A stretch of 24,000 nt of DNA from Rhodospirillaceae bacterium (GCA_020638575.1 JACKIH010000003.1:3044461-3068460); one strand, 5' to 3'. Positions 3,726-23,795 are shown, counted from the stretch's first letter. A program made the numbers and translations. Notes: generated from the sequence alone by a model not told the origin.

Positions 3726-4079
3726 GTGGCGCGCAGCGGTAGCGAAAACCGGCAACGGCAGATCGCCCTGAAGGCCCGCTTCAGCGAAGCGGAGGCCGAG
3801 CTCGTGCGCGCCCAGGCCGATGCCGCCGGTGTGCCCGTTGCCGGGCTCATTCGCTACGCCGTGCTGGAACAGACGCCGCTCAGGGCCACGCGCACGCCGC
3901 CTGCCGACTGGCAGGAAGTGGCGCGGCTTGTGGCGGCCCTCGGCACGCTGGCAACCGACCTGCGGCAGGCCGCTTCCCAGACCGATGACGAGACTGCGAT
4001 CGCAGCCGTCATCGCCGCGCAGCGCGACCTTACGGAGCTGCGGGTCGCCGTTCTGCGTGCTCTCGGGCGTGAGCCATAA
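3726..4079 (+). CDS. mobC: MobC-family relaxosome accessory protein
   Basis: GTG start 6 nt after GGAGG (3715-3719). Motif RFSEAEAELVRAQADAAGVPVAGLIRYAVL is typical of MobC. Sits immediately upstream of the relaxase. Confidence 0.8.
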   Translation: MARSGSENRQRQIALKARFSEAEAELVRAQADAAGVPVAGLIRYAVLEQTPLRATRTPPADWQEVARLVAALGTLATDLRQAASQTDDETAIAAVIAAQRDLTELRVAVLRALGREP

Positions 4080-4089
4080 GGGGGCGGCC

Positions 4090-5622
4090 ATGATCCTCAA
4101 AGGCAATACCCGCGCCAATGGCTCCGATCTCGCCACCCACTTGCTCAATTCCTACGACAACGAGCGGATCGAGCTGGCGGAGATGCGCGGCACCATCGCC
4201 GACGATCTCCACGGCGGGTTCGCCGAGATCGAGGCGATTGCCGCCGGGACGCGCGCGACAAAGCCCTTCTACAGCCTGTCGATCAATCCCGGCGAGCCGC
4301 TGACGCGGGAGCAGTATTTCGAGGCGATCGACGCCATCGAAACCCGGCTAGGATTGACCGGGCAGCCGCGCGCCGTGCTGTTCCACGTCAAGGACGGGCG
4401 TGAGCATGCCCATGCCGTCTGGTCGCGCATTGACGGCGTTCAGATGCAGGCCGTGCACATGGCCCATGACCGCCGCAAGCTGTGCGACATGGCCTGCCGC
4501 CTCGCCGACAAATTCGGGCATGAGCTGCCCGACGGCCTGAAAGCCTGGCGCGACAAGACCGGCTTCGAAAAGCAGGCATTGGAGCCGAGCTTCGCCGACG
4601 CAGCCATGCAGGCACGGACCGGCACCTCGCCCGAAGATCGCCGCGCAGAAATCAGCGCGCTCTATCAGGCCTCCGACAGCGCCGCCGCGTTCCGGCAAGC
4701 GCTGGAGGAGAAGGGCTATGTGCTGGCCAAGGGCGACCGGCGCGCCTTCGTGGTGGTCGACCGTCAGGGCAATGTGCACAGCCTCTCACGCTACCTGAAA
4801 GGCGTGAATCGGAAGGAGCTTCAGGCCCGCATGGCCGGGATCGATGTGAACGGACTGCCGTCCGTCGATCAGGCCAAGCAGGAAGCCTTGGCGCGCGCTG
4901 CCGCTGCCGAAGACCGGGCACGCGAACAAAGAACCCGCGAGCAGGCGGAAAAGGCGCGGGATCAGCAGGCGCAGCGAGAGCGCGAGGCGGCACAGCAGCG
5001 CACAGATCTTTCGGGCGACCATGCCAGGCGCCGCGCCGAACTGCGGCAGGAAGAGCAGGAGCTGCTGACCCTTCAGCAGTCGGAACGGCTTGTCCTGCAT
5101 GCGGCCCAGGATACCGAGGCGGGCGGGCTACTGTTCCGTGTGCGCTCCGCCGTGTCCGACCTGATCGAGCGGACGCCGGGGCTGCGCTCCGTGCTCTCGC
5201 ATATCACCGCCCGGACGGGGCTCGATCCGCGCGAGCGGCACACGCTGGAACGCGACGCGCTCTCCCGCCGCCACGACCGCGAAAAGCAGGCCATGGCTGG
5301 CCGCAGCCGCGCGCTGGAAAAGATCGAACAGCGCGAACGGAACAGCCTGGAGCGGGATCTCCGGCGGGAGAACGCGCTGGCACTGATCGCCGAGCGGGCG
5401 CTCATGCAACAACAGCAGCAGGGCTGGCGGGCGACCGATCCTCGTCTTCTTGAGGATGACGGCCTCGCCACGGCGTTCAATGCGGCGGCGCAGGGTGCCG
5501 ATGATGGTGATGATGGCGATGACACGAGGACAGCGAAGAAGAGCTGGAAGGCCCGCGCCGATGGCTTTGGCAGCCGCCGGAGCCGCAAGCGCGGCTTCGG
5601 ACACCGCCGCGATGACGAGTAG
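4090..5622 (+). CDS. relaxase/mobilisation nuclease (MobA/VirD2-type, MOBQ-like) with a coiled-coil, charged C-terminus
   Basis: ATG at 4090 after AAGGGGG. N-terminus MILKGNTRANGSDLATHLLN, candidate catalytic Tyr in KPFYSLSINP, and His motif REHAHAVWSRID. The track start at 3820 overlaps mobC and was rejected. Confidence 0.9.
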   Translation: MILKGNTRANGSDLATHLLNSYDNERIELAEMRGTIADDLHGGFAEIEAIAAGTRATKPFYSLSINPGEPLTREQYFEAIDAIETRLGLTGQPRAVLFHVKDGREHAHAVWSRIDGVQMQAVHMAHDRRKLCDMACRLADKFGHELPDGLKAWRDKTGFEKQALEPSFADAAMQARTGTSPEDRRAEISALYQASDSAAAFRQALEEKGYVLAKGDRRAFVVVDRQGNVHSLSRYLKGVNRKELQARMAGIDVNGLPSVDQAKQEALARAAAAEDRAREQRTREQAEKARDQQAQREREAAQQRTDLSGDHARRRAELRQEEQELLTLQQSERLVLHAAQDTEAGGLLFRVRSAVSDLIERTPGLRSVLSHITARTGLDPRERHTLERDALSRRHDREKQAMAGRSRALEKIEQRERNSLERDLRRENALALIAERALMQQQQQGWRATDPRLLEDDGLATAFNAAAQGADDGDDGDDTRTAKKSWKARADGFGSRRSRKRGFGHRRDDE

Positions 5623-5650: not shown

Positions 5651-6979
5651 CTACTCCGTCTGCGCAGACTCCGGCAGCGTGAGGGCGGCCAGCCGCTGTC
5701 TGACGGCGCGGTTCACGCTGTCGTGGATCGCTTCCGGGAAGTCCGGCGGCAGCGCCTGTGCAATGGCATCCAGCGCGCTTTCGGCCCGGTCTGCGACCTC
5801 CGCTATGGCTTCGGCAACGAGCCGTTTGGGCAGCCGGGCTCTCTCGCCGGTCTGCATGAAATGCCGGGCCAGGATCTCCGCCATGCGGTAGTGGCGGTTG
5901 GCGCCGACGGACATCGCCAGCTTCATGCTCTTCTGTGTGATCTGCCCGTCATCAAGGCTCGGCTGAGCGGTCAGGATATCGTAGAGCGGGGTCAGCCGGT
6001 ATCCGCCGCCAGGGCTCAGGAACACGCTGAAATTCTTGGCATGGCCGTCGGTCGCGCCGATCAGCCAGAAGACAAGCTGCGCCTTGAGGAATGTCTTCTG
6101 GTCATCCGCCGGCCGGTCGCTGCCCTTGAGCAGGTCCAGGATATCGACCATGCCCGGCCCGCCATCCGCCTGGTATTTCAGGCTGGGGGGGACGGACAGG
6201 GCCTGGCAGCAATCCTCCTGCGGCAGGCGCAGGAGCCGCCCGTCCTTCGTCCAGCGCCGATCAAAGCGTTCGACAACGAGCGCCTTCGTCTCCCCGAACT
6301 GCGCCATTTGCGCTGCGCCCACCGGCAGGCCGAAGGCTTCCGCCAGCTTGAGGCAGTAGAATTCGTTCTCGACACTGTCCGAGAGATCGATCCCGTTCGG
6401 CAGGCGGCCGATCTGTTTCTTCAATATGTGTGTGGTCGGCGTCGTGCCGTGCGGCTTGTGCCAGCGCCCCTCATGCCAGAGCAGCGCGGTCTTTTCCTGT
6501 GCACCCGCGACCGATATCCGGAAATCATCGTCCCGGCTCAGACCCAGGGGAGCCTTGACCAGGCTGAGCAGCAGCGCCTCGATCTCCTGCTCACCAATGG
6601 CAGTGCCTTTGATCCCGCCGGAAGGATCGGGACCATCATCATCCCCGGCGATGAATTGCAGTGCGCCGACACAGTCCCGGCCGATGGCAGCGAGCAGGCT
6701 GTAGGCATCCGCGCCGTGCGCGCCGACCTTCTCCGCGACGCGGCGGCGCAACGCATCGGAATCGGGCAGCAGGTTCTCGAACACGGCTATGACAGGCGCC
6801 CCGTGATAGGGCTCTTCGCGCAGCGGCAGCGAGAGCGAGATCGGCAGGGTGTGGTCCCAGCCGAGCCAGCCCTTGTCGTATTGGAAGCTGACCGCGCCGC
6901 TTGGCGCCTTGGTCAGGTGTCCGACCATGCGGCTGTTCAGGAGCACGCGCAGCGGCGCGTATTGCGCCCGGCGCGGCAT
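5651..6979 (-). CDS. hipA: HipA-family Ser/Thr kinase toxin
   Basis: N-terminal HipA coupling region (LLNSRMVGHL...FQYDKGWL), catalytic loop GATDGHAKNFSVFL. ATGA overlap with the upstream HTH gene. Confidence 0.9.
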   Translation of the reverse strand: MPRRAQYAPLRVLLNSRMVGHLTKAPSGAVSFQYDKGWLGWDHTLPISLSLPLREEPYHGAPVIAVFENLLPDSDALRRRVAEKVGAHGADAYSLLAAIGRDCVGALQFIAGDDDGPDPSGGIKGTAIGEQEIEALLLSLVKAPLGLSRDDDFRISVAGAQEKTALLWHEGRWHKPHGTTPTTHILKKQIGRLPNGIDLSDSVENEFYCLKLAEAFGLPVGAAQMAQFGETKALVVERFDRRWTKDGRLLRLPQEDCCQALSVPPSLKYQADGGPGMVDILDLLKGSDRPADDQKTFLKAQLVFWLIGATDGHAKNFSVFLSPGGGYRLTPLYDILTAQPSLDDGQITQKSMKLAMSVGANRHYRMAEILARHFMQTGERARLPKRLVAEAIAEVADRAESALDAIAQALPPDFPEAIHDSVNRAVRQRLAALTLPESAQTE

Positions 6980-7227
6980 CAGAAGATCTCCTCAAGGGCG
7001 GTTTCGCCTGTGCTCCGGGACAGAACCCGGCATTCGAGGCCGAGTGCCGCGAGGACGGCCAGCAGGCTGTCGAGCCGCGCCGCCGGGTTGCCCGTCTCCA
7101 TCAGCGAGATGGTCTCCTGGCGCAGGCCCGCGCGTGCGCCCAGCTCGGTCTGTGTCCAGCCGCGCTGTTTGCGGGCGCGCCTGATGATGGCGCCGATCTG
7201 TTTCGGTGTGCGGGCAAGCTCAGTCAT
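6979..7227 (-). CDS. hipB: HipB-like XRE-family HTH antitoxin
   Basis: HTH segment IRRARKQRGWTQTELGARAGLRQETISLMETG. 1-nt overlap with the hipA start. Confidence 0.85.
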   Translation of the reverse strand: MTELARTPKQIGAIIRRARKQRGWTQTELGARAGLRQETISLMETGNPAARLDSLLAVLAALGLECRVLSRSTGETALEEIF

Positions 7228-7379: not shown

Positions 7380-7895
7380 CTAATCGGAGACCGGGATGCG
7401 CGCGAACGGGATGTCATGGATGACACGTCCGTCCGCCGTCTGCGAGAAGGCCCGCAGATTGACGCTGGCCCGCCCGCCGGCAGTCCCGCTCCCGCTGTCA
7501 TCGGCCGCAATCCGGAACTCATAGAGGACGCCGGGGGCGAGGACCGTCCAGGTAACGTCCTCATAGTACGCGATGCAGTGATCAGCCGGGTGAAAGCAGC
7601 TCGCGAGCCCGAAAATTTCAAACTGCCGGGGGTCCCGTTCCCCGGAAACCAGCACCACCGACTCCCGCGCCGAGACGAGGAAGAGGGTGCTCTCCTCGCT
7701 CCTGTTCATCACGCTCATGTCAAAGACGATCGCCGAGCCATCCACGACCGATGCCGTGTCGATGCCGATCACAATGTCGCCCGCCTCGCGGGACGAGATC
7801 AGGCCGACCTCCAAGCTCTCTGCGCCGCTCTGGGCATGCGAGGAGCCGGAGGCAATGCATACGATTGTAATCACGGTAGCGAGACGAGGCAGCAT
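7380..7895 (-). CDS. exported protein of unknown function
   Basis: Internal ATG at 7895 gives MLPRLATVITIVCIASGSSHA/QSG, a signal-peptide-like N-terminus. The longer track ORF to 8027 adds an implausible leader. Confidence 0.5.
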   Translation of the reverse strand: MLPRLATVITIVCIASGSSHAQSGAESLEVGLISSREAGDIVIGIDTASVVDGSAIVFDMSVMNRSEESTLFLVSARESVVLVSGERDPRQFEIFGLASCFHPADHCIAYYEDVTWTVLAPGVLYEFRIAADDSGSGTAGGRASVNLRAFSQTADGRVIHDIPFARIPVSD

Positions 7896-8131
7896 GGCGG
7901 ATATCGAAATCTGTGAGGATGCGGAACAACTATAGCATATCATCCGCCGTACTCCCCAAGTCCCATCACGGCAAAACCGCTTATCCATCGCTTTCTCCCC
8001 AAATTTACGGAGCCGCTGCTCGGACATTGCAGAGCATCACCGGCGGCCTTGGCATCAGCCTGACCCACTTCGATGCATGAGTAGATCTCGAGGAATTGTG
8101 CTTATCGGGTAATCTCTAGCTTTCAATTGTT

Positions 8132-9007
8132 CTATTCAGTCTGACTCAGCGAGCGGTCAAACTCTTCCCGATTGGCGATCACAAGCGGCGCCTCTTGAGG
8201 TTCGTTCAATATTTCAGCAACATCGAGACGAAGTCGTTTCTTGAAATAATATAGCATCGATCTTCGAACACTTATCTCGATAACATTATCGTTCATCTCG
8301 AAGTCATGCTCTATTATCTTTTGCTGCAACAAGGGGAGCGCCGGATTTGCTTTTAGAAAAACCTTAAATACCTCTTGCCATCGGCTGTCCTCGTGACCGC
8401 GTGCCTGCAGTTCGCCGCCAATTCGGCAGTCCAGGCAGCGCGAGACAAGAAAATCTTTGAACGTCCTATCGATATGGCAAAAGGCACGCACATGCCACCG
8501 AATGCCGTCACTTCCGAAGGCGTGTGGACTAATTTCTCGCCACGCCGGATTTGCGCGCCTAGGATTCATCGACTGATAGTAGATTTCCACAGCCCGGCCC
8601 AATCTAACTGCGGCGAGAAGCGTGCGAAGAAGCTCCGGATCAACGCGGCGGTGTGGGATCGGGAGGCAGTCCGCGTCGGGAAGCTTCGAAAGCCAAGTCT
8701 CGCTGACGAGTAATGTTCCGTCGGCTACAGATCGGAGCTGAGAAAGATACCGATCCGGATCGGGTTTCAGGAAATGCGGCCTAAAGGCGGGGGCGGCGAA
8801 ATAGCGCTTTCCACTCTTATCGTAAGCCATGTTCCCTGGCGCCAATTCTTGATACAGGCGGAGGTCTTTTGAGGCCTGCGGCACCGAAACGCCGAAGTAG
8901 GTGCGGATGTCCGACCTGTTGATACCGCCTTCCCAGAATAACCGGAATTCGATGAACTCAAGCCGTTGCTCCACACCCCAGCGCAGGTCCGGCGTGCGCT
9001 CCTCCAT
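8132..9007 (-). CDS. BrxR/CapW-family transcriptional regulator (wHTH + WYL + C-terminal dimerisation region)
   Basis: N-terminus RLEFIEFRLFWEGGINRSDIRTYFGVSVPQASKDLRLYQ (BrxR-type wHTH). WYL-domain core YYQSMN...REISPHAFGSDGIRWHVRAFCH. Divergent from a defence operon. Confidence 0.85.
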   Translation of the reverse strand: MEERTPDLRWGVEQRLEFIEFRLFWEGGINRSDIRTYFGVSVPQASKDLRLYQELAPGNMAYDKSGKRYFAAPAFRPHFLKPDPDRYLSQLRSVADGTLLVSETWLSKLPDADCLPIPHRRVDPELLRTLLAAVRLGRAVEIYYQSMNPRRANPAWREISPHAFGSDGIRWHVRAFCHIDRTFKDFLVSRCLDCRIGGELQARGHEDSRWQEVFKVFLKANPALPLLQQKIIEHDFEMNDNVIEISVRRSMLYYFKKRLRLDVAEILNEPQEAPLVIANREEFDRSLSQTE

Positions 9008-9036
9008 GCTCTTATCCTTTCGCCGACGGTGCGTAT

Positions 9037-9077
9037 AGAAACTAGATTGACAGCCAAACGCGATGCGTCTAGTTTCT
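9037..9077 (+). promoter_or_regulatory. operator plus promoter of the DUF2188-qat operon
   Basis: Perfect 10-bp IR AGAAACTAGA (9037-9046) / TCTAGTTTCT (9068-9077). It encloses TTGACA (9047-9052), and 17 nt later TAGTTT (9070-9075) lies inside the right arm. Confidence 0.55.
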
Positions 9078-9121
9078 TATCTCATCAATCGTATGCCGTC
9101 AACTCAATGCCGGAGGGCGCG

Positions 9122-9364
9122 ATGCCCAAGAACGATCGCTACGTCGTCAAGCATGGCTCCGACTGGGCCGTAAAGAAGGGTGGTGTTGAGCGCCCCCAGA
9201 GCGTGCACGGGACGCAGGCCGAAGCCGAACGCACGGCCAAGGAGACCGTCAGAGGTCTTGGTGGAGGCGAAGTCCGCATTCAGGGCCGCGACGGTAGGTG
9301 GCGCGACTCCGATACGGTGGCGCCGGGCAACGACCCGTGTCCGCCGCGGGATAAGAAACACTAG
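9122..9364 (+). CDS. DUF2188-family small protein
   Basis: ATG at 9122 5 nt after GGAGG (9112-9116). Sequence YVVKHGSDWAVKKGG...HGTQAEAERTAKE...EVRIQGRDGRWRDSDTVAPGNDPCPPRD fits the DUF2188 pattern. Confidence 0.7.
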   Translation: MPKNDRYVVKHGSDWAVKKGGVERPQSVHGTQAEAERTAKETVRGLGGGEVRIQGRDGRWRDSDTVAPGNDPCPPRDKKH

Positions 9365-9397
9365 CGGAGGGCCAGCCTCCGCTGCACGGAGAAGGTA

Positions 9398-11257
9398 ATG
9401 TGGCCGGACAACGAGACAGCGCAGGATTTCCTTAATTTCTCCGGGGTCGCAGATACGGTCGCGGAGATCATCATTCAGGCAGACGGCCGACCCATCTCGA
9501 TCGGCATGTCCGGTGCGTGGGGCGTTGGCAAGTCGTCCATGATCAGGCTTGTTCGCGGCGCGTTTGACGGGCGTGCGAAGGGCCGCGCCGGCGATTTCAT
9601 CTTCGTCGAGTTCAATGCCTGGCTTTATCAGGGTTATGACGACGCGCGCGCTGCACTGCTGGAAGTTATTGCCACCGAATTGGCCGATGAAGCGGAACGG
9701 CGCAAAACCGGTATCGACAAGGCCAGAGAGCTGCTCGGTAGGGTGAACTGGTTGCGGGCGGCCAAATTGGCAGCCGGATCGGCGATGGCGCTCGCTCTCG
9801 GTCTCCCGCCAGTCGGGCTTGCGGGTGATGTGTATCAGATCGGCAGCAGAGTTCTGGCGGGACAGGCCGATCAACAGACAGTGGGGGATGCACAGGAGGC
9901 TGTTCAGGAGATCGGTAGCGAGGCGGCTGGCTTGCTTAAGCCCAAGACCGCGCTGACCCCGCCCAGAGAAATACATGCAATCCGGGAATGCTTCGAACAA
10001 ACCCTCTCTGAGATGAACGTGAAGCTGGTCGTCCTGATTGATGACCTCGACCGTTGCTTGCCGCCGACGACAATCTCAACGCTCGAAGCCATTCGCCTTT
10101 TCCTCTTCCTTAAGAACACCGCCTTCGTCATCGCCGCCGATGATGCGATGATTAAGCATGCGGTGCGTAGCCATTTCGACGGCGTCGACGACAAGCTGGT
10201 CACCAACTACTTTGACAAACTCATTCAGGTGCCCATTCGCGTGCCACCACTGGGCACACAGGAAGTGCGGGCATATATGATGCTGTTGTTTGTCGAGAAC
10301 AGCGCCCTTGAGGAAGCTGCCAAGGAAGTCATCCGCAGCAAGACGTGCGCCCAGTTAGCGCAGACCTGGCGCGGGCAGCGGGTCGACCGGGCTTTCATGC
10401 AATCGGCCCATCAGGGCCTGCCGCCCGAGCTGATTTCCCGGTTCGATACGGCGGAACGGTTGGCCCCACTCATGACAACGGCTTCGCAGATTGCCGGCAA
10501 TCCCCGGCTTATCAAGCGGTTTCTCAATGCGCTCTCGATACGAATGGCCATTTCAACTGCTCATGGCGTCGGTGTCGACGAAGCGGTCCTCGCCAAGATG
10601 CTGTTGTTCGAACGGTGCGCTCCGCCTTCGGCGTATGAAGCGCTGACTCAGGCAGTCAACACGGACGACGAAGGAAAGCCGCGAATACTTGGTCCCTGGG
10701 AAGACGCCGCACTTGGCGGTGCCGAACTGGACCTTGATGAGACCTGGGACGACGCGTTCATCCGCGAATGGCTGACAGTTCCGCCGCGCCTTGCCGATAT
10801 CGACCTTCGCGGGGTCTTGTATGTCAGCCGCGAACACGCGCCACTGATCACGCCCGAGGATCGCCTATCCTCCGAAGGGGCGGAAGTCCTGTCTGCGATC
10901 CTGGAACATCCGGATATGGCGGCAGCGATGCATGAGCGTTTGACTCGTCTGCCGCGGCCCGAGGCGACCATTGTCATGGATCGCCTGCTGGAACGTGCCC
11001 GCCAGATACAAGAGTGGGGAACTCCGCCGATCCTCGACGCCTGTATCGCCGTTTGCGCCGCCGATCCAACGCAGGGCTCGCGGCTCGCCGCCTTCCTGCG
11101 CGAGCGCCCCGCCAGCCAGATCAAGCCTGGAATCGTGCCAAAGATCGGCGACCAACCTTGGGCAAAGGACGTGTTGGGCGTCTGGAACGCGTCCAATGTA
11201 GCGGCGCCCGCAAAAGCGGCCATAACACGGGAGCTTAAGAAGCATGGGAACGTCTAA
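9398..11257 (+). CDS. qatA: KAP-family P-loop NTPase, QatA-like
   Basis: Walker A GMSGAWGVGKSS, FVEFNAWLYQGYDD, Walker B VVLIDDLDRCLPP. RBS GGAGAAGG before the ATG. Position and size (619 aa) fit QatA. Confidence 0.85.
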   Translation: MWPDNETAQDFLNFSGVADTVAEIIIQADGRPISIGMSGAWGVGKSSMIRLVRGAFDGRAKGRAGDFIFVEFNAWLYQGYDDARAALLEVIATELADEAERRKTGIDKARELLGRVNWLRAAKLAAGSAMALALGLPPVGLAGDVYQIGSRVLAGQADQQTVGDAQEAVQEIGSEAAGLLKPKTALTPPREIHAIRECFEQTLSEMNVKLVVLIDDLDRCLPPTTISTLEAIRLFLFLKNTAFVIAADDAMIKHAVRSHFDGVDDKLVTNYFDKLIQVPIRVPPLGTQEVRAYMMLLFVENSALEEAAKEVIRSKTCAQLAQTWRGQRVDRAFMQSAHQGLPPELISRFDTAERLAPLMTTASQIAGNPRLIKRFLNALSIRMAISTAHGVGVDEAVLAKMLLFERCAPPSAYEALTQAVNTDDEGKPRILGPWEDAALGGAELDLDETWDDAFIREWLTVPPRLADIDLRGVLYVSREHAPLITPEDRLSSEGAEVLSAILEHPDMAAAMHERLTRLPRPEATIVMDRLLERARQIQEWGTPPILDACIAVCAADPTQGSRLAAFLRERPASQIKPGIVPKIGDQPWAKDVLGVWNASNVAAPAKAAITRELKKHGNV

Positions 11258-12116
11258 GTCCGGTACAGGGCCAGGGCCAGGCGTTCCTCTTGTGCCGCCC
11301 TGGGTACCCGATCCAGCTCCGCCTGCACCTCCTCCGGGGGACGACGGTTCAGACAATTCCGGCAACAACGATTCCGGCGACCAAGACGAGCAGGCTCAGC
11401 CGGATTCAGTTCCACCGGCTTCTGCACCCGCGCCCCAGGCACCGCATGCGAGGTTCGGAGGTGCGCGCGCAAATCTGGGCAACTTTGCCCGCACCGGCTC
11501 GCCGGACGATATGCGACGCGGTCTGGGTCACTACGTTCACAGAGGCTATGGCGGCGCGCGATATGCTGCACAGCGAATGGGGGGAACGGCACGAACTGCC
11601 GGTACTCTCTACGGCGCACTGTCCTCTGCGGCGGCAGGACAGGCGGCCGGGCCGGGCAGCCCGTTTGATCCGGCTCTCTTAGCTGGGCGCTCCGCCGATG
11701 AGGTCATGGACGCCTTGGTAGAGGCTGTCCGTCCCGTCGATGGCACGCAGGATGCAGAAGCAGGCCGTGGCGCAATTCGCGATGCTCTTTCCGAGTTGCT
11801 CAACCGGTTCCCTGATGCCGATCTGTTGAGTCTCTCGGAGGAGCAGCGCCTATTCGCAATCGAGCGCTATCTGGCCCTTGATGTTTATGGGCGTTTTGCG
11901 CTCGACCTCGGCAAGACTGTGCAGGAGAAGGCGCCCAGCGCCACGGCTGCTCTATCACGTCTGAAAGAGATCAAGGACTACATCAAGGAAACGGTTTCGG
12001 CGCAATTCAGAGAGCTCAAAAAATCCGGGGAGTCACCAGGTGCGCGGCGCGTATCCGAAATGGCGAATCAAGCCCTGCGTGACACGTTTGCGGTCTTCGA
12101 GGGGTACGCCCAATGA
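11244..12116 (+). CDS. qatB: QatB-like protein (no known enzymatic domain; disordered P/G/D-rich N-terminal third)
   Basis: Sits between the KAP NTPase and the QueC-like gene. 14-nt overlap with qatA and ATGA overlap with qatC. Begins MGTSKSGTGPGPG. Confidence 0.7.
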   Translation: MGTSKSGTGPGPGVPLVPPWVPDPAPPAPPPGDDGSDNSGNNDSGDQDEQAQPDSVPPASAPAPQAPHARFGGARANLGNFARTGSPDDMRRGLGHYVHRGYGGARYAAQRMGGTARTAGTLYGALSSAAAGQAAGPGSPFDPALLAGRSADEVMDALVEAVRPVDGTQDAEAGRGAIRDALSELLNRFPDADLLSLSEEQRLFAIERYLALDVYGRFALDLGKTVQEKAPSATAALSRLKEIKDYIKETVSAQFRELKKSGESPGARRVSEMANQALRDTFAVFEGYAQ

Positions 12117-13393
12117 GAATTGTCTGTGCACCGGAGGATCAAGGATTTCAGGCAGGCCGGACCGCCGACCTCGGTGTTGTTCTCTATGGTCACACCAACG
12201 ATCCCCAGTCCGCATCTGTTGGTGCGGCGGTACGTGACATCATCCAGCGCCGCAAGCTGAAGCCGGCGGCACGTGCCTGGGACCTTTTGACCATAGCCTT
12301 ATCTGTCATTGCTGCCGACACCGGTGCGCGCCGTAGCGATAGCCCCGACGGTTGGACCCGTCAGCTCAATCTCGACATCACAGTCGGCGACGCCGCATTC
12401 TGGACGTCCCAAAGCGAATTGCTGGTTCGCCAGCTACACTTCCTGACGACCGATCTCTGGAATCTGTCGTTCTCCGGGGGCGGCATTCAGCCCGTCCCCG
12501 AAAAGCCGACTGCCGAGCCTGATCAGGACAGTGTTGTCCTCTTGTCGGGCGGTCTCGACAGCCTTGTCGGCACGATAGATCTCGTGACAGCACACAACAA
12601 GAAGCCTTACGCAGTCAGTCAGGTATCGCAGGGAGATAAGAAGACACAATGCTTTTTCGCTTCAAAGATCGGGGGCGGATTGGGCCATCTCCAGCTTAAT
12701 CACAACGCGGACTGTCCTGGCGAGAACGAACGCTCCCAGCGGGCAAGATCGATTATCTTTTTAAGCTACGGTGTCCTATTAGCAACTTCCCTGGCGCGCT
12801 ACTATGAAGGCGGTGATGTTACTCTCTATGTATGTGAAAACGGTTTTATCTCGATAAATCCTCCGCTTACCGATGCGCGCCTTGGCAGTCTGAGTACGAG
12901 AACGACTCACCCTGTCTTTCTTGGCCTCTTTCAGCAGCTTCTTGATGCCGCGGGTCTGCGCGTGACGATCAAGAACCCCTATCAGTTCTGTACAAAGGGC
13001 GAGATGCTTAAAGGCTGTGTGAGCCAGCAGTTCCTGTTCAAGTATGCGCATGTGAGTACAAGCTGCGGACGATATGCTCGGAACGGCTATAAGCATTGCG
13101 GACGGTGCCTTCCTTGTCTTATTCGCCGTGCCGCATTTGACGCCTGGGGCGTTGCCGACCAGACAGAGTATGTCTTCGCCGATTTAGCGCGTGACGATAA
13201 AGATCACGCCCAATATGACGATGTCCGCTCAGCGGCTATGGCCGTAGCTGCAGCGAAAACCGAAGGACTGGCGGCATGGGCCGGACCGTCACTCAGTACT
13301 GCGCTCTTGGGCGACATCACCCCCTATAGAGGTGTTGTTGGACGCGGCCTCGACGAACTAGCTTCCTTCCTTCGGAAGGCAGGCGTGAATTGA
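12113..13393 (+). CDS. qatC: QueC-like PP-loop ATPase, QatC-like
   Basis: PP-loop VVLLSGGLDSLVGT in the C-terminal half. Cys cluster CGRYARNGYKHCGRCLPCLIRR, like the QueC zinc site. Extra roughly 140-aa N-terminal region. Confidence 0.85.
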   Translation: MRIVCAPEDQGFQAGRTADLGVVLYGHTNDPQSASVGAAVRDIIQRRKLKPAARAWDLLTIALSVIAADTGARRSDSPDGWTRQLNLDITVGDAAFWTSQSELLVRQLHFLTTDLWNLSFSGGGIQPVPEKPTAEPDQDSVVLLSGGLDSLVGTIDLVTAHNKKPYAVSQVSQGDKKTQCFFASKIGGGLGHLQLNHNADCPGENERSQRARSIIFLSYGVLLATSLARYYEGGDVTLYVCENGFISINPPLTDARLGSLSTRTTHPVFLGLFQQLLDAAGLRVTIKNPYQFCTKGEMLKGCVSQQFLFKYAHVSTSCGRYARNGYKHCGRCLPCLIRRAAFDAWGVADQTEYVFADLARDDKDHAQYDDVRSAAMAVAAAKTEGLAAWAGPSLSTALLGDITPYRGVVGRGLDELASFLRKAGVN

Positions 13394-14157
13394 TCGATTT
13401 CCACTGTCACATTGATCTCTATCCAGACCCACAACACGTTGCCCGCGCATGTGATGCTCGCGGTCTTCACGTGCTCTCGGTGACGACAACACCCAGCGCC
13501 TGGCACGGCACTTCAGCTCTTGCGCATGGCAGGATCCGTACAGCCCTTGGCCTCCATCCGCAGCTTGCACACGAACGGCATGGGGAACTTGCTCTGTTCG
13601 AGGAGCTGCTGCCGCAGGCGCGCTATGTCGGAGAGATCGGGCTTGATGGCGCACCAGAGTTCCGCGCCAACTGGCAGGTCCAGGAGACGGTCTTTCGATG
13701 CATCCTGGATGTCTGTGCCAAAGCTGGCGGGCGGATCATGTCGATCCACAGCCGGCGTGCGAGCAAGGCTGTACTTGACTGCCTTGCGACGCAGCCGGAT
13801 TCGGGCGTTCCGGTCCTGCACTGGTTTTCCGGTACGACGCGCGATCTCGACAGGGCCATTGAATTCGGGTGCTGGTTCAGTGTTGGTCCGGCCATGCTGA
13901 GGGGAGAGAGAGGGAGAGCATTGGCTGCGCGAATGCCCCGCGAACGTGTCCTCACAGAATCGGACGGGCCATTTGCACAGATCGAAGGGCGATCAGCCTG
14001 GCCCTGGGAAGTCGACAGAGCCGTAGCCGGACTGGCAGCCTTGTGGGGAATCGACGAGCGCAAGGCACAGGTGGTGCTGGACGACAATCTTCGGCACTTG
14101 GCCCAATGGTCCCGAGCAGGGCGTGCCGAGCCTCCAGATTCCGGGATGCGAACGTGA
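13390..14157 (+). CDS. qatD: TatD-family metal-dependent hydrolase/DNase, QatD-like
   Basis: TTG start overlapping the qatC stop (TTGA). Motifs MIDFHCHIDL, YVGEIGLDG, MSIHSRRA, VLHWFSG, LTESDGPF. Confidence 0.85.
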   Translation: MIDFHCHIDLYPDPQHVARACDARGLHVLSVTTTPSAWHGTSALAHGRIRTALGLHPQLAHERHGELALFEELLPQARYVGEIGLDGAPEFRANWQVQETVFRCILDVCAKAGGRIMSIHSRRASKAVLDCLATQPDSGVPVLHWFSGTTRDLDRAIEFGCWFSVGPAMLRGERGRALAARMPRERVLTESDGPFAQIEGRSAWPWEVDRAVAGLAALWGIDERKAQVVLDDNLRHLAQWSRAGRAEPPDSGMRT

Positions 14158-15728
14158 CGGGCTCTGTCGTCTATCTGTTTGTCGACACCAACCTTCTCAT
14201 CCAGTGCCGTCCTCTCGAGCAACTGGACTGGTCGCCATGGAGCAACTTTGAAGAGGTGCGGCTGATTGTATCTAATCCGGTCCTGCGAGAGATGGATTAC
14301 CGCAAGAATAAGGGCCAGGACCGCCTCGGTAGTCGCGCTCGGGCAGCATCAGCCATGTTTCGCAAGATGTTGCCGGACGGGCAGAAGACTATTCGGGAGA
14401 GCCGACCGCGCGTCCTTCTCTCCATCGAGCCTCAGCACCGATATAGCAGGGACCTCGAAGACCGGCTGAACTACGATGAGCGCGACGACCAGCTCATCGG
14501 CACTATCCACGAATTCGCAAGGGGCAATCCGGGTAGCGATGTGCGGCTGCTGACCCATGATACGACCCCGCTCTACTCGGCCCGAGCCCATGGGTTGGCA
14601 GCGGCGGTGATACCCGACGACTGGCTGCTGCCGCCCGAAAAAAGTGAAACCGAGAAAGAGCTGTCGGCGCTGAAGGCGGAGAATGCCCGGTTGAAGAAAG
14701 CCGAGCCTTCCTTCGCGGTACGATGCGCAAACACCGAAGGGACCGAAATCACGCGCTATGAAGGTTCGTATACGAGGTACGAGCCGCTGACAGACGACGA
14801 CGTAGATGGTCTGATGGCGCGCCTGAAGGAGTGCTTCCCTCCTGAGACCGACTTCGGGCCAAGAGAGCCTGCGGAACGCGATGCACCGCCGGTGGGCGGG
14901 TTGCGCGTTTCTGGCATGAAGCAGATCTTCACACCGGCCACGGACGAAGAAATCGCAGAATATCTTGGCGAATCATACCCGAACTGGCTGACAAAGTGCG
15001 AAGAAATCCTGCGAAACCACCATTGGACGCTTCAAAAAGAAGAAACTGTACTGGCCTTTGTATTCCTGGCTGAGAATAACGGCACTCGCCCAGCGACCGA
15101 TGCTCTGATCACAATCGAGGCTCAGAGCCAATTCGAGGTTAGGCCTCCTCCGTCAAAAAGGCGCGATGAGCAACAGAGCGACGATGATGACGGGCCGCGC
15201 ATGCCCGAGTTGCCGCGTCCGCCCGCAGTCCCTCATGGCCGCTGGCGATCGTCAGTCGGCAGCCAGTCAACTGGCCTGTACACAACCATGCTCCAGCGCT
15301 CCCTCCGCGGCATGCCGGGTTTTGCCGGCTTTGGCAGTAGCGTATTTGACGAGAGAGTCCTGCAACCTCCGATTATTCCCCCACTACATGATCCAAATGC
15401 ATTCTACTACAGTTCGGGCCGGTCGGGCGTGCCTCAAGAATCCTTCGCCCTGGAATGTGATCAGTGGCGCCACGAAGACGGGGAAGAGCCGTTTGTCGGT
15501 GAGATCTGCGTGCCTGCCGGTCAGCAAGAGGCCAAGGGCGCACTGATCTGTCGTATCCAAGCAAGCAACCTCTCCAGAGCCGTGTCCCTCAAGATTCCGG
15601 TGCACATAGCCATCGAGCATGTCCGAGCCTTTGACGATGCCGAGAAAATGGTCGAGGCCCTGACAATGCGACCGAGTTTTCGGATCAAGCCATCTTCAGG
15701 ACAATCCGGCACAGGCGGATCTGCCTGA
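14154..15728 (+). CDS. PIN-like nuclease domain protein with coiled-coil linker and unrecognised roughly 320-aa C-terminal region
   Basis: GTG at 14154 overlaps the qatD stop (GTGA). N-terminus VVYLFVDTNLLIQ, then VLREMD, ERDDQLIG and LLTHDTT give the four acidic PIN positions. The track start at 13869 lies inside qatD. Confidence 0.65.
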   Translation: MTGSVVYLFVDTNLLIQCRPLEQLDWSPWSNFEEVRLIVSNPVLREMDYRKNKGQDRLGSRARAASAMFRKMLPDGQKTIRESRPRVLLSIEPQHRYSRDLEDRLNYDERDDQLIGTIHEFARGNPGSDVRLLTHDTTPLYSARAHGLAAAVIPDDWLLPPEKSETEKELSALKAENARLKKAEPSFAVRCANTEGTEITRYEGSYTRYEPLTDDDVDGLMARLKECFPPETDFGPREPAERDAPPVGGLRVSGMKQIFTPATDEEIAEYLGESYPNWLTKCEEILRNHHWTLQKEETVLAFVFLAENNGTRPATDALITIEAQSQFEVRPPPSKRRDEQQSDDDDGPRMPELPRPPAVPHGRWRSSVGSQSTGLYTTMLQRSLRGMPGFAGFGSSVFDERVLQPPIIPPLHDPNAFYYSSGRSGVPQESFALECDQWRHEDGEEPFVGEICVPAGQQEAKGALICRIQASNLSRAVSLKIPVHIAIEHVRAFDDAEKMVEALTMRPSFRIKPSSGQSGTGGSA

Positions 15729-15912
15729 TATTCCTGCTATTGAGCCATGGTGACACCCGGTGCGGGGGTGCGTCCGGCACAAGAGCCGGACCGGGCTCTC
15801 GTGAACCGAACCCCGGCTCTTCCGGGTTTCGGCCATACGGCTTCGATCCCTTGCACATACCAGTGGACAGCGCCATTCCGGCGCTGAACTTCCTATTGAA
15901 CATAAGGGGTTA

Positions 15913-15931
15913 GGGAAGGCGCCGCCTTCCC
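15913..15931 (+). terminator. GC-rich palindromic hairpin downstream of the qat-PIN operon
   Basis: GGGAAGGCG-c-CGCCTTCCC, followed by TCCCTTGG. 185 nt after the PIN gene stop. Confidence 0.35.
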
Positions 15932-16070
15932 TCCCTTGGCGCGCCTTCTGCCGGACCGGCAGGGCCGCGTCCGGCGCACGACCGCTTCGCTGGTCATGCC
16001 CCGGTCCGCAACCCGGCTGGCCCCACAAGCCGCACCGACCCACACCTATCCGTTCCTCGCCGGAAGGGCA

Positions 16071-16088
16071 GGGTTGCATGTGCAACCC
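16071..16088. promoter_or_regulatory. palindromic candidate operator upstream of the DUF2958 gene
   Basis: GGGTTGCA-TG-TGCAACCC (16 of 18 positions symmetric), 32 nt upstream of the ATG at 16120. Confidence 0.35.
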
Positions 16089-16119
16089 ACTTCCAATGGA
16101 TTTACGAAAGGAACGGACC

Positions 16120-16479
16120 ATGAAGCTACTTACAGATTCTCAATACAAAGCCCTGCTCCGCAACGGAGAACTGCGGAAACACTTCGAAAAAGAGGGGAAG
16201 GTGGAGCCTGATTTTTTTCCCGTCGTCAAACTCTTCACGCCCGATGCGTCCTGCACGTGGCTGCTGACGGAGCTTGACCCCGACGATCACGACATTGCCT
16301 TCGGGCTGTGCGATCTCGGTTTCGGCTGTCCGGAACTCGGCAGTGTTCGGCTCTCGGAATTGAAGGCCGTTCGCGGAAAGCTGGGTCTCCCGGTAGAGCG
16401 CGATCTTCATTTCTGCCCCGGCAAGACCATCGGCGACTACGCCGATGAGGCCCGCGCCGCCGGTCACATCAAGGCATAG
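16120..16479 (+). CDS. DUF2958-family protein (conjugative-element backbone)
   Basis: ATG at 16120 after AAAGGAA. Sequence LFTPDASCTWLLTELDPDDHDIAFGLCDLGFGCPELGSVRLSEL matches the DUF2958 pattern. Confidence 0.8.
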   Translation: MKLLTDSQYKALLRNGELRKHFEKEGKVEPDFFPVVKLFTPDASCTWLLTELDPDDHDIAFGLCDLGFGCPELGSVRLSELKAVRGKLGLPVERDLHFCPGKTIGDYADEARAAGHIKA

Positions 16480-16488
16480 GGGGCGGCC

Positions 16489-17154
16489 ATGGATAGACAG
16501 GACCTGAAAAACACAGGTGAGGGCGGGCAGCTCGGATTCGACATGCTGCTCTCCACCGCAATGGCCGAAAACGAGGCGCGGCGCTTCGAGCGCGAAACCG
16601 CACACCTGCCGGATACACTCGAAGAGGCGGTACCGTTCTTTCGCGGTTTGATCGAGCGGCACCACGCCGCGATGATGGCGGCTGACGTGGATGAGACCAT
16701 GCGCCTTCGGAACGAAGCCGACTTGCTGGCCCAGCGCGTGAACGGGGGCGACCGGGCCATTCTGGCCGACGAGAATGCGCCGGGCCGTGTATTGGAACGC
16801 GAAACCGCTGCCACGCCGGGAGATGTGCCGCTGTGGGGGCAGACCGGCAATTTCGAGATCCCGGTCTGCGGCGCGCGGGTGCGGATCGAGCTTGAAGGCG
16901 TTTTCGGTATTGGCACCGGGTTCGGATACTGGCCCGGATTTTCGGCCCATGCCGTCGATCCCGCTGCGCCCTTTGTCAGCCCAACCGGCTACCGTAGCTT
17001 CCTCGGTCAGTACGCGGGTCCCGTGCCGGGGCTGACCCCGGACCAGTTCGCGGCCCGGTCCGTCGAAAACTACGTCGCGGACGCCCTCAAAGGATGTCTG
17101 GTCGCGATCAAAAGGGAGTATCACCCGAACCGCGGGGAGGCGGGGGAACCATGA
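16489..17154 (+). CDS. hypothetical protein (221 aa), co-transcribed with the DUF2958 gene
   Basis: RBS GGGGG 9 nt after the DUF2958 stop. ATGA overlap with the following gene. No motif recognised. Confidence 0.6.
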   Translation: MDRQDLKNTGEGGQLGFDMLLSTAMAENEARRFERETAHLPDTLEEAVPFFRGLIERHHAAMMAADVDETMRLRNEADLLAQRVNGGDRAILADENAPGRVLERETAATPGDVPLWGQTGNFEIPVCGARVRIELEGVFGIGTGFGYWPGFSAHAVDPAAPFVSPTGYRSFLGQYAGPVPGLTPDQFAARSVENYVADALKGCLVAIKREYHPNRGEAGEP

Positions 17155-17471
17155 ACGTCCTATTTGTCTGCACTGCCAACAAGCTGCGCAGCCCGACCGC
17201 CGAAGCGGTCTTCTCGGGGCGGGAGGGAGTTGCCGTTCGCTCTGCTGGGCTCGATCCGGCAGCGCCGCGTCGCCTCACCGAAGAGCTTGTCGCCTGGGCT
17301 GACCGCATCTATGCCATGGAAGACCGCCACCGCCAGAAGATCCGGAAGAAGTTCCGCAAGGCGCTCGGGGCAAAGCCCATGGTGACGCTGCATATCCCCG
17401 ACGAGTACGAGTTCATGCAGCCCGAGCTGATCTCGTTGCTCACGGAGCGGCTGCCGGATCTTGGCGGTTAG
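17151..17471 (+). CDS. short LMW phosphotyrosine phosphatase / ArsC-like protein (106 aa)
   Basis: P-loop VLFVCTANKLRSPTAEAV (C-X5-R-S). Shorter than canonical LMW-PTPs. Confidence 0.7.
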   Translation: MNVLFVCTANKLRSPTAEAVFSGREGVAVRSAGLDPAAPRRLTEELVAWADRIYAMEDRHRQKIRKKFRKALGAKPMVTLHIPDEYEFMQPELISLLTERLPDLGG

Positions 17472-17673: not shown

Positions 17674-17702
17674 TTGCAATTGGTGTGGCGAGATGGAATA
17701 AT
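17674..17702 (+). promoter_or_regulatory. candidate sigma70-type promoter of gajAB
   Basis: TTGCAA (17674-17679), 17-nt spacer, AATAAT (17697-17702). It encloses the GTG at 17685 used by the longest ORF. Confidence 0.3.
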
Positions 17703-19622
17703 TGCGCCTGCTATTTGTGCGGGGAGAGGTGCATTGCGCATAAGTCATTTAAGAATAAAGAATTTCCGGGGATCAAGGAAGCGACGATTTTTCTTCCGAA
17801 GCATGCAGTATTAATCGGAGATAACAATACCGGTAAGACCACGCTGCTTGAAGCAATTGACCTTGTTCTCGGTCCTGATCGCCTCAACCGGATGCCGCCG
17901 GTAGATGAGCACGATTTCTTTCAGGGGCGCTATCTGCCTGTTCAGGTCGGCGCCGAAGGCGTGGCCGATGATGAAGATCCGGGGGCAGACAGCGAAAAGG
18001 ATGCCGTAGCAGCAGAACATGCGCCCGCTGAAGGTGAGCACAGCGAAGAAGCCCCAACCATTCGCATTGACGTGACAATCGTCGATCTAAGCGGCGAACA
18101 GCGGGCGCACTTCGGAGATGTAGTCGAGTTCTGGGATAATAATGACCGACAACTCTATGAGAAACCAGATCCAAAGGGCGTCGATCCTGCGCATATCTCT
18201 GAAGCCATACGTGTAACTTTTCTCGGCTGGTATGAACTTGGGGAAGACGACTTCCAGGGGAAGACTTTTTTTACGCGAAGTCTGACGGAAGGTGATACAG
18301 GCGAGCCGTTCAGAAGGACCGATAAGCAGCGATGTGGCTTCCTGTACCTCCGCTCTCTTCGGACCGGCTCACGCGCTCTAAGCCTCGAAAGGGGCAGTCT
18401 GCTCGACATCATTCTGCGGCTAAAAGAGCTTCGCCCGCAGATGTGGGAGGCAACGCTCTCTCATCTGGCTGAGTATGACGTTGCCAGCGATCCGGCACTC
18501 GGTATTACGGGTGTCCTGGAAAGCATCAATGCGTCTCTTAAGAAATATGTGCCAAAGGAATGGGGTATTCACCCCCATCTCAAAGTCTCCAACCTCACCC
18601 AAGATCACCTGCGCAAGGTCATAACCGCGTTTATCGCAACGGGTGACGGCGATCATGCCGCCCCGTTTTACCGGCAGGGGACAGGAACGCTGAATATGCT
18701 TGTCCTGGCGATGCTTTCCCAGATCGCCGAGGGCAAGCAGAACGTCATCTTTGCCATGGAAGAGCCTGAGACTGCGATACCGCCCTATGCGCAGAAGCGC
18801 ATCGTCCATGAGGTTCGCAAGCTTTCAGCCCAGACAATCTTCACATCACATTCCCCGTATGTGCTCGAAGAGTTCCAGACAGAAGAAACTGTCGTGCTTC
18901 GCCGCGAAACACACGGCGCTCTGAGGCAAGCCGATATCAAGCTGCCGGAAAGCCTGAAGCTGAAGCGATACCGGCAGCAGTTTCGCACCCGTTTCTGTGA
19001 AGGCCTTCTTGCGCGCAGAATCCTAATTGCTGAGGGCGCTACCGAAGCACAATCCTTTCCAGTGGTCTGTCGTCGGCTCTCCGAGATTAACTCAACTAAG
19101 TATGCTTCCCTTGAAGCTCTGGGCATATGCATCATCGATGCTGGAAGTGAGACGCAGATAGCCGATCTCGCCAAACTATATTCAGGTCTTGGTAAGCGAG
19201 TGTTTGGCCTGTGTGACAAGCAGGATGTGCAAGCGGAAGCGGCCATTGCCGCCGAAGTTGAGGCCTTGTTCATGCATGGGGAGCACGGCTTTGAGGATCT
19301 GATACTCAAGAACACGACCGAAGACGCCCTCAAGCGTTATGCTGGGGCCGTTGCATGGCCGCCACACCTTCAGCATAAGCACCCGAACCCCAGAATAGAC
19401 ATCCAAGCGGCCATCGCGGATTTGTTCGAGTGGGGGAAAGCGAACTGGATTGCCGCGGACTTCCTGGCGCAATGCACTGAAGCCGAAATGCCTGAATGGC
19501 TTCGGGAAAAGGCCTCAGAACTGAAAACGCTCTGTGACCCACCATCGGCGGCGGAAAACAGCGCTGACGGCAGTGAAGGCGCAGAGCCGGAGCCAGCTGC
19601 AGGGGACGCGGATGGCGATTAA
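17685..19622 (+). CDS. gajA: GajA (OLD-family ABC ATPase + TOPRIM nuclease). The longest intact ORF is given; the ancestral start appears to be TTG 17734 in another frame (see findings)
   Basis: Walker A GDNNTGKTT, FAMEEPETAIPP, TSHSPYVLE. TOPRIM motifs RRILIAEGATE and ICIIDAGSE. Followed by a UvrD-like gene with an 11-nt overlap. Confidence 0.8.
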   Translation: MARWNNCACYLCGERCIAHKSFKNKEFPGIKEATIFLPKHAVLIGDNNTGKTTLLEAIDLVLGPDRLNRMPPVDEHDFFQGRYLPVQVGAEGVADDEDPGADSEKDAVAAEHAPAEGEHSEEAPTIRIDVTIVDLSGEQRAHFGDVVEFWDNNDRQLYEKPDPKGVDPAHISEAIRVTFLGWYELGEDDFQGKTFFTRSLTEGDTGEPFRRTDKQRCGFLYLRSLRTGSRALSLERGSLLDIILRLKELRPQMWEATLSHLAEYDVASDPALGITGVLESINASLKKYVPKEWGIHPHLKVSNLTQDHLRKVITAFIATGDGDHAAPFYRQGTGTLNMLVLAMLSQIAEGKQNVIFAMEEPETAIPPYAQKRIVHEVRKLSAQTIFTSHSPYVLEEFQTEETVVLRRETHGALRQADIKLPESLKLKRYRQQFRTRFCEGLLARRILIAEGATEAQSFPVVCRRLSEINSTKYASLEALGICIIDAGSETQIADLAKLYSGLGKRVFGLCDKQDVQAEAAIAAEVEALFMHGEHGFEDLILKNTTEDALKRYAGAVAWPPHLQHKHPNPRIDIQAAIADLFEWGKANWIAADFLAQCTEAEMPEWLREKASELKTLCDPPSAAENSADGSEGAEPEPAAGDADGD

Positions 19623-22688: not shown

Positions 22689-22696
22689 GCCTGTCG

Positions 22697-23641: not shown

Positions 23642-23795
23642 TCTTCCGAAGCGTCCTTGGCGCTGGTTGGCTCGGGTAGTACTGGCATCAATTTTTGCAG
23701 TATATGCGCGACAGACAAGACACATCGCAGTGGAGGGTGCGGCAGGCCCAAAGCGCACAACGAACACGAACTCCACTTTTTGACGGCGCCTTGAC

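Follow-up and report, generated by a model that had tools for sequence, protein, structure and literature searches.

A qatABCD operon between a BrxR-DUF2188 regulatory head and a solitary PIN gene: a probable mosaic in a Rhodospirillaceae defence island

The stretch of DNA analysed here, referred to as the window, comprises 24,000 nucleotides (nt) from a Rhodospirillaceae bacterium (GCA_020638575.1, JACKIH010000003.1:3044461-3068460). Its positions 8132 to 15728 hold seven genes centred on an operon of QatABCD, reportedly described as an anti-phage system by Gao et al. in 2020. A sequence-only reading of this DNA had proposed an extended, seven-component Qat variant in which a WYL regulator, a DUF2188 protein and a PIN nuclease join the four Qat proteins. 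Comparison with related loci indicates that the region is probably a mosaic of three independent modules in the defence island of a mobilisable element, and not a seven-gene Qat system. The first module would be a portable head made up of brxR, an operator lying over the -35 and -10 elements of an outward-facing promoter, and DUF2188 as obligatory first cistron. The second would be a canonical qatABCD cargo, inserted 33 nt past the DUF2188 stop codon, and the third a solitary gene for a PIN nuclease of 524 amino acids (aa) that abuts qatD. The locus is unusual solely in its BrxR-DUF2188 wiring and its appended PIN gene, and is a regulatory and mosaic variant of a known system. Gene content, motifs, the conservation of the operator and the boundaries of the modules all come from direct comparison of loci.

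All seven open reading frames (ORFs) lie where the sequence-only reading had placed them. The public gene call of the same contig, a Rhodospirillaceae metagenome-assembled genome, has the same genes, with products of 291, 80, 619, 290, 426, 255 and 524 aa, and the E-values of the family matches across the locus are far beyond chance. From DUF2188 to the PIN gene the genes are co-directional and tightly packed. The overlap between qatA and qatB is 14 nt (11244-11257), and the qatB/qatC, qatC/qatD and qatD/PIN overlaps are 4 nt each, the last of them reading GTGA. These overlaps and the domain assignments had been given correctly by the sequence-only reading, as the ORF map, the public gene call and profile hidden Markov models (HMMs) agree.

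The Qat loci compared come from metagenome contigs and hold the 80 closest matches among at least 566 that were confirmed; the sequence reaches 1.3 kb or more upstream of qatA in 38 of these loci, and 1.8 kb or more downstream of qatD in 34. Relatives of the window's BrxR, DUF2188 and PIN proteins were found in none of the 80 by tblastn (E <=1e-3), nor by phmmer together with a PIN profile (E <=1), and BrxR and DUF2188 profile HMMs likewise gave no match (E <=0.1). The flanks hold a shifting mix of restriction-modification, BREX, AbiE, integrase and other unrelated genes. Approached from the PIN side, 33 loci with PIN homologues were taken from representative genomes with 10 kb flanks, and none of them has qat, BrxR or DUF2188 within 10 kb of the PIN gene. 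Because the homologues are never syntenic with qat in the 80 Qat loci or the 33 PIN loci, the PIN gene and DUF2188 do not appear to be Qat subunits. The sequence-only reading had named in advance a lack of synteny elsewhere as evidence against itself, and this is what the compared loci display. In a literature search, Qat and QueC papers made no mention of PIN, WYL or DUF2188 and no paper linked BrxR with Qat. Published lists of BrxR-associated systems do not include Qat, and a QueC neighbourhood supplement gives KAP_NTPase and TatD as the sole entries for the QatC cluster.

A genuine seven-component, WYL-controlled Qat system, in which DUF2188 and PIN are subunits, PIN is a second effector and five or six proteins are translationally coupled, would fit the tight packing, the 4-nt overlaps in the run from qatA to the PIN gene, the intactness of all the genes and the failure to detect an internal terminator or promoter. 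This proposal is nevertheless very improbable, being largely refuted by the synteny (co-occurrence in 0 of 80 Qat loci and 0 of 33 PIN loci). DUF2188 follows BrxR and not Qat, and the DUF2188 cassettes described below bear other cargo; a GTGA start is inherent in PIN genes of this family; and published Qat is a four-gene system with QatBC as its minimal core.

The four central genes form a genuine, intact and canonical QatABCD operon, as the sequence-only reading had recognised: PADLOC models match all four proteins, and gene order and motifs are kept. QatA matches its PADLOC model with an E-value of 3e-152 (residues 1-590 against positions 1-592 of a 593-position model) and Pfam KAP_NTPase with 6.4e-64, and carries a Walker A motif, GAWGVGKS, at residue 39. 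QatB (PADLOC, 3.4e-41; NCBIfam, 153 bits against a cut-off of 100) opens with MGTSKSGTGPGPGVPLVPPW, so that its N-terminus is MGTS followed by a Pro/Trp-rich tail. The N-terminal MGTS glycine motif of QatB is essential for defence in Pseudomonas aeruginosa (PMC13279940), and structures of QatBC have been reported (PMC13279940, PMC13376578, PMC13639016). QatC (PADLOC, 2e-95; NCBIfam, 320 bits against 280) has the motifs SGGLDS at residue 145 and CGRCLPC at residue 329, both invariant in 24 homologues; more than 100 QatC homologues share 62-77% identity with it. QatD matches Pfam TatD_DNase (1.8e-43) and the PADLOC (2.7e-94) and NCBIfam (337 bits against 230) models. Its HxH motif is present as HCH at residues 5-7; PMC13434339 describes this motif, and QatD as an NTP-inhibited exonuclease and apurinic/apyrimidinic endonuclease. 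A cut-off qatD tail was considered as a possible insertion scar and rejected, as the 255 aa of QatD are normal within the family range of 241-263 aa, in which the C-terminal tail is variable.

The genes run co-directionally in the order A-B-C-D in the window and in nearly all of the 80 related loci, with the same overlapping B/C and C/D junctions. Identity of the window's Qat proteins to those loci is 47-78% (QatC 47-70%, QatA up to 78%). The operon therefore shares with known QatABCD systems its four proteins, their order, their overlapping junctions, strong HMM matches and the motifs of QatA, QatB, QatC and QatD, and it is apparently functional. It differs in sitting directly behind a BrxR/DUF2188 head and in having a PIN gene against its 3' end, both of which are missing from the 80 relatives, and in a QatA that falls below the NCBIfam equivalog cut-off (452 bits against 600).

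The divergent upstream gene encodes a genuine BrxR-family protein with a winged helix-turn-helix (wHTH)-WYL-WCX architecture. It matches Pfam WYL (1.7e-8) and PADLOC WYL (5.4e-13), and its precomputed Pfam families are WHD_BrxR, WYL and BrxR_CTD, which bears out its earlier identification as a BrxR/CapW-type WYL regulator. DUF2188, correctly named as the first cistron, matches its Pfam family with an E-value of 5.7e-17 and, over its full length, the PADLOC PDC-S16 HMMs with 1.1e-18 and 6.8e-17. Its close homologues are strongly conserved, at 74-90% identity over 80 aa. Thirteen loci, the window included, have a DUF2188 homologue at 69-90% identity and enough upstream sequence to be compared, and in 12 of them a divergent WHD_BrxR-WYL-BrxR_CTD gene lies about 105 nt from DUF2188 (the window, L179, L181, L182, L183, L185, L187, L188, L189, L190, L193 and L126). 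The BrxR proteins of these cassettes are 49-57% identical to that of the window, against 69-90% for the DUF2188 proteins.

Cassette homology stops at the DUF2188 stop codon, and each cargo starts after it. The commonest cargo 3' of DUF2188 is a TIR_2 protein with a protein of about 510 aa; others are a DUF4365-led trio, a 371-aa protein with SMODS, and a CBASS phospholipase-cyclase-E2 operon. The window alone has qatABCD as its cargo. As DUF2188 co-varies with BrxR and the operator before unrelated cargo, it is better seen as part of a portable regulatory head than as part of Qat.

The intergenic DNA of the cassettes is conserved. Besides an inverted repeat it holds TTGACA and TAGTTT, separated by 17 nt, a GTCAAC box, and GGAGG ahead of the ATG. 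The window has the inverted repeat in perfect form, with 10-bp arms (AGAAACTAGA and TCTAGTTTCT) at 9037-9046 and 9068-9077 and 21 nt between them. It aligns in register across eight cassette loci, where both arms contain invariant columns, and the motif was counted once in the window against an expectation of zero. A search pattern built on the operator was present in 12 fetched loci, of which 11 are cassette loci and the twelfth (L112) is probably a chance match inside the locus; the pattern requires TAT, and fails on the window and L179, where TAG stands instead. Other fetched BrxR loci, those without DUF2188, did not contain the motif.

The TTGACA and TAGTTT hexamers, 17 nt apart, sit between and inside the operator arms and face DUF2188 and qatA, and would form the sigma-70 promoter of a DUF2188-qat operon. 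The TGAC of the -35 element and the TAGTT of the -10 element are invariant in the alignment of cassette intergenic regions, and GGAGG lies 6 nt ahead of the DUF2188 ATG. A terminator scan of the locus found terminator-like sites to be no more frequent than in shuffled sequence. BrxR control and co-transcription of the locus are plausible.

BrxR proteins act as dimers, repressing defence promoters by binding to inverted repeats there, and are found with many defence systems (PMC9122601); CapW, which is related to BrxR, senses and is released by single-stranded DNA (PMC11662680). The window's regulator shares with the BrxR/CapW family (PMC9122601; bioRxiv 10.1101/2021.12.19.473356; 10.1101/2022.01.04.474952; PMC11662680) its domain architecture, an adjacent defence operon, an inverted repeat over the promoter and a setting in mosaic defence islands. 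It is divergent, whereas known members lead the operon that they regulate, and its repeat has 10-bp arms and a 21-bp spacer, compared with 11 bp and 5 bp in the BrxR of pEFER (PMC9122601). Its subgroup, unlike known BrxR proteins, is tied to a DUF2188 first cistron; none of the BrxR papers came up in a full-text literature search for DUF2188.

DUF2188 has been seen before behind another kind of regulator, in operons where it follows CapH/CapP and precedes varied putative defence genes (Lau et al., bioRxiv 10.1101/2022.04.27.489752). Common to those operons and the window is a small DUF2188 gene between a divergent defence regulator and variable cargo (cyclases, TIR). They differ in that the window's regulator is a WYL protein and theirs a pair of HTH protein and metallopeptidase, and in the unusual conservation of the window's DUF2188 subfamily (74-90% identity among the homologues found). 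The BrxR cassette extends this earlier observation to a BrxR head. A search of plasmids by tblastn with DUF2188 and PIN found distant relatives only; an XRE-DUF2188-Vsr/Dcm/GIY-YIG arrangement on a Methylocaldum plasmid follows the same theme as the CapH/CapP-DUF2188 operons.

An AlphaFold2 model of DUF2188 (predicted local distance difference test score, pLDDT, 79.7) has a beta3-alpha-beta fold with no significant Foldseek match, and a sequence search found no solved homologue. Weak HicB-N-like and Cas1-N-like Foldseek matches (E >=0.09) were rejected as uninformative. We hypothesise that the role of DUF2188 is tied to BrxR, through feedback or anti-repression, and favour such a role because the presence of DUF2188 follows that of the regulator, whatever the cargo.

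DUF2188 could alternatively be a single-gene defence system or effector (PDC-S16) that merely shares a BrxR-controlled promoter with the system that follows. The PADLOC PDC-S16 match would agree with this, as would its listing as a putative effector domain of Thoeris islands (bioRxiv 10.64898/2025.12.03.692087), a link between DUF2188 and defence that bioRxiv 10.1101/2022.04.27.489752 credits to Burroughs and Aravind, the solitary copy beside an integrase in L191, and phage-encoded relatives (phrog_3220 and 21 viral contigs). A protein of 80 aa with neither catalytic motif nor structural match is, on the other hand, hardly expected to be an effector; its subfamily is almost always paired with BrxR and the conserved operator, and a larger cargo always lies 3' of it. 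We consider the effector role rather unlikely.

The head and the Qat cargo meet at a GC-rich hairpin, AGCGGAGG-GCCAG-CCTCCGCT, which stands directly at the DUF2188 stop codon. Lacking a run of T on the + strand, it does not qualify as a canonical operon terminator. The junctions of TIR-cargo cassettes, which measure 9-16 nt, have no such hairpin, and L179 also has one in a junction of 90 nt. The hairpin may be a scar left by recombination, or may act as an attenuator or in RNA stability.

Several observations touch on the cassettes and their surroundings. The TIR cargo (L181, L182, L187-L190 and L193) consists of a TIR_2 protein of about 480-500 aa and the protein of about 510 aa, which has no Pfam family, sometimes with a UvrD-like helicase 3' of the pair; the pair may be an uncharacterised TIR-based system. 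Kinship of the 510-aa protein with the PIN protein was considered and rejected, as tblastn gave no match. Directly downstream of brxR on the same strand, the window has a 187-aa ORF (7380-7943, -) without a Pfam, PADLOC or PHROG match, which may be a second, BrxR-side cargo. Elsewhere the brxR side carries an N6_N4 methylase with ResIII (L179, L189, L190 and L193) or SNF2 with DUF1156 (L182). On a viral contig (L135, 2150-8921), a BrxR homologue 47% identical to that of the window faces an operon ending in a 632-aa QatC-like protein (PADLOC QatC, 3.9e-56); QatA, QatB and QatD were not detectable in L135, which may hold a different QueC-family defence system under BrxR control.

The PIN gene begins with GTG, a start that agrees with the N-termini of 26 aligned homologues and upholds the earlier call of a PIN start overlapping the qatD stop. 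Its product matches Pfam PIN_4 (6e-10) and has no match in PADLOC or NCBIfam. A search found 345 homologues, the best 120 of which share about 50-64% identity along nearly their whole length, and residues D11, E46, D48, D111, D112 and D136 are invariant in 27 aligned sequences. In an AlphaFold2 model (pLDDT 80.7) an N-terminal SMG6/Nmd4-like PIN domain is followed by a helix and two beta-sandwich-like domains. Foldseek matched the PIN domain to SMG6, Nmd4 and AF0591 (E 5e-5 to 1e-3) and also to Rrp44, and gave further matches to Ig/macroglobulin-like sandwiches. On this model the protein is most likely an autonomous RNase with its own sensor domains. It shares the PIN fold and the conserved acidic residues with the PIN_4 domains of the SMG6/Nmd4/Rrp44 type and with PIN-PhoH (YlaK-like) proteins, and has a weak PHROG match to the PIN part of PhoH-like proteins. 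Unlike PIN-PhoH it has no PhoH ATPase, and carries instead the helix, the two beta-sandwich-like domains and a conserved QWRH motif; unlike both groups, it is encoded by a solitary, partnerless gene outside PADLOC and NCBIfam.

Clustering of all flanking ORFs in the 33 PIN loci found no conserved neighbour. The three closest homologues examined lie after a Gabija-like pair in the defence island of an integrative and conjugative element, among transposases, and in an islet close to an integrase; 12 further genomes have chiefly unrelated housekeeping genes around their PIN gene. The start of the gene is almost always GTG or TTG followed by A, and thus contains a built-in TGA (L001-L033, L115-L117 and the window at 14154). 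An upstream ORF on the same strand stops at this TGA in about 10 of 21 close homologue loci. Since the GTGA/TTGA start is a trait of the PIN family, the 4-nt overlap with qatD is not evidence of integration. The overlaps that the sequence-only reading took as a sign of coupling are real, and that between qatD and PIN tells of the PIN family and not of a joint system. As a family trait the start hints at enforced low expression or translational coupling. A promoter and terminator scan detected neither kind of signal between qatD and the PIN gene, so the latter is probably a co-transcribed passenger that would be induced together with Qat.

The upstream ORFs also bear on whether PIN is the toxin of a toxin-antitoxin or abortive-infection pair, with the upstream gene (qatD here, a small overlapping ORF elsewhere) as its partner. 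PIN domains are classic toxins, those ORFs end exactly at the PIN-start TGA where they occur, and a 74-aa gene has been called upstream of PIN in L115. No gene is called at that position in L116 or L117, however. The upstream ORFs are not mutually homologous and form no conserved neighbour cluster, and in high-GC DNA long spurious ORFs are expected to end at a fixed TGA. The adjacent conserved antitoxin gene of VapBC pairs is missing from the 33 PIN loci, and 524 aa with sensor-like beta-sandwich domains compare with roughly 130 aa for VapC toxins. Such a pair is distinctly unlikely.

Some findings weigh against a mosaic of independent modules. L191 has a close DUF2188 homologue without BrxR, a lone copy beside an integrase; more distant DUF2188 genes accompany other regulators or none; and DUF2188 occurs in only one or two of 40 BrxR loci on viral contigs. 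The role given to DUF2188 is a guess, since its model has no informative structural match, and a consensus promoter scan did not flag the TTGACA/TAGTTT promoter. At the qatD-PIN junction, the lack of terminator and promoter together with the 4-nt overlap makes a locally evolved functional partnership possible. As the Qat sample is limited to the 80 closest loci and short flanks, rare or distant pairings of BrxR with Qat, or Qat with PIN, are possible as well.

If the mosaic reading is right, a BrxR dimer on the operator would, as published for its family, keep the promoter repressed, and because the operator arms flank and overlap the -35 and -10 elements, repression of the DUF2188-qat transcript would be steric. 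BrxR would be released when its WYL domain senses a cue derived from phage or from damage; for CapW that cue is single-stranded DNA. One transcript might then yield DUF2188, QatA-D and, by read-through, the PIN protein. Defence would be that of an ordinary Qat system, with QatA as its KAP NTPase, QatC acting on the MGTS N-terminus of QatB, and QatD as nuclease. DUF2188 would work for the regulatory head, where it might partner BrxR in feedback or anti-repression, and the PIN protein would work on its own.

Table 1. Features of the seven-gene locus and its regulatory DNA; positions are counted from the first nucleotide of the window.
Feature	Position	Strand	Basis or remark
brxR, BrxR/CapW-family regulator (wHTH-WYL-WCX), 291 aa	8132..9007	-	divergent from operon
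Putative BrxR operator, inverted repeat	9037..9077		repeat search and locus alignment
Putative sigma-70 promoter of DUF2188-qat operon	9047..9075	+	sequence reading
DUF2188 small protein, 80 aa, first cistron	9122..9364	+	Pfam, PADLOC
GC-rich hairpin, 8-bp stem	9363..9383		cassette/cargo junction
qatA, KAP-family P-loop NTPase, 619 aa	9398..11257	+	Pfam, PADLOC
qatB, predicted substrate or partner of QatC, 290 aa	11244..12116	+	PADLOC, NCBIfam
qatC, QueC-like PP-loop ATPase, 426 aa	12113..13393	+	PADLOC, NCBIfam
qatD, TatD-family nuclease, 255 aa, TTG start	13390..14157	+	Pfam, PADLOC, NCBIfam
Stand-alone PIN_4-type nuclease gene, 524 aa, GTG start	14154..15728	+	Pfam

The surroundings of the locus carry further defence and mobility genes. 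A MobA/VirD2-type relaxase gene (3820-5622, +) and an ankyrin-repeat gene (1614-2342, -) lie upstream, followed by a HipA-like kinase toxin with an 82-aa HTH_3 partner directly upstream of it (5651-7227, -; HipA_C, 2.3e-54; Couple_hipA). A complete Gabija system (17685-21438, +) begins 2 kb downstream of the PIN gene, with PADLOC E-values of 2.5e-254 for GajA and 1.6e-227 for GajB. The presence of Gabija and HipBA marks the region as a defence island. GC content falls from about 65-68% to 55-60% between approximately 7500 and 21500. Megablast of positions 8000-16000 against plasmids gave no match, and a tRNA scan of the DNA found no tRNA.

The gap between PIN and Gabija holds three small genes (16078-17471, +), which encode a DUF2958 protein (7.3e-41), a 221-aa protein without a match and a truncated-looking ORF resembling a low-molecular-weight phosphatase. 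The DUF2958 family is common on conjugative elements. In the high-GC flank, a 384-aa ORF (22697-23851, -) has a weak Cas6 C-terminal match (PF10040, 5.2e-7) and competes with an ORF on the opposite strand (22536-23396).

The cassette of L182 stands in a similar setting: beside its BrxR/DUF2188-TIR genes, positions 10216-12689 encode a relaxase 58% identical to that of the window, together with NikA-like and Ank_2 genes. This likeness suggests that related mobilisable or conjugative elements have a cargo hotspot in common. A HipBA-like pair also adjoins the BrxR/DUF2188-TIR cassette of L181.

A bolder reading, possible and offered tentatively, takes brxR, the operator and DUF2188 together as a three-part swap-in cassette of conjugative or mobilisable elements, which accepts TIR, CBASS, SMODS, DUF4365 and Qat cargos and in which DUF2188 is a required partner of the WYL repressor and not an effector. 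DUF2188 may then act in anti-repression or feedback, or pass on the signal of infection. As a secondary possibility, the PIN proteins of about 520 aa may constitute a single-gene defence or toxin module that has gone unrecognised, made for translational coupling to any upstream gene.

Qat biology itself gains little from this locus: the operon is canonical, and annotators of defence islands are cautioned against taking the extra genes for new Qat subunits. The comparison also flags a widespread, uncharacterised family of 520-aa PIN proteins. The reusable BrxR-operator-DUF2188 cassette is its most interesting by-product. DUF2188, so far only a 'defence-associated' domain, is singled out as a candidate partner of WYL repressors, and the finding of the same BrxR-operator-DUF2188 head driving at least five unrelated defence cargos supports modular, exchangeable regulation of defence on mobile elements.

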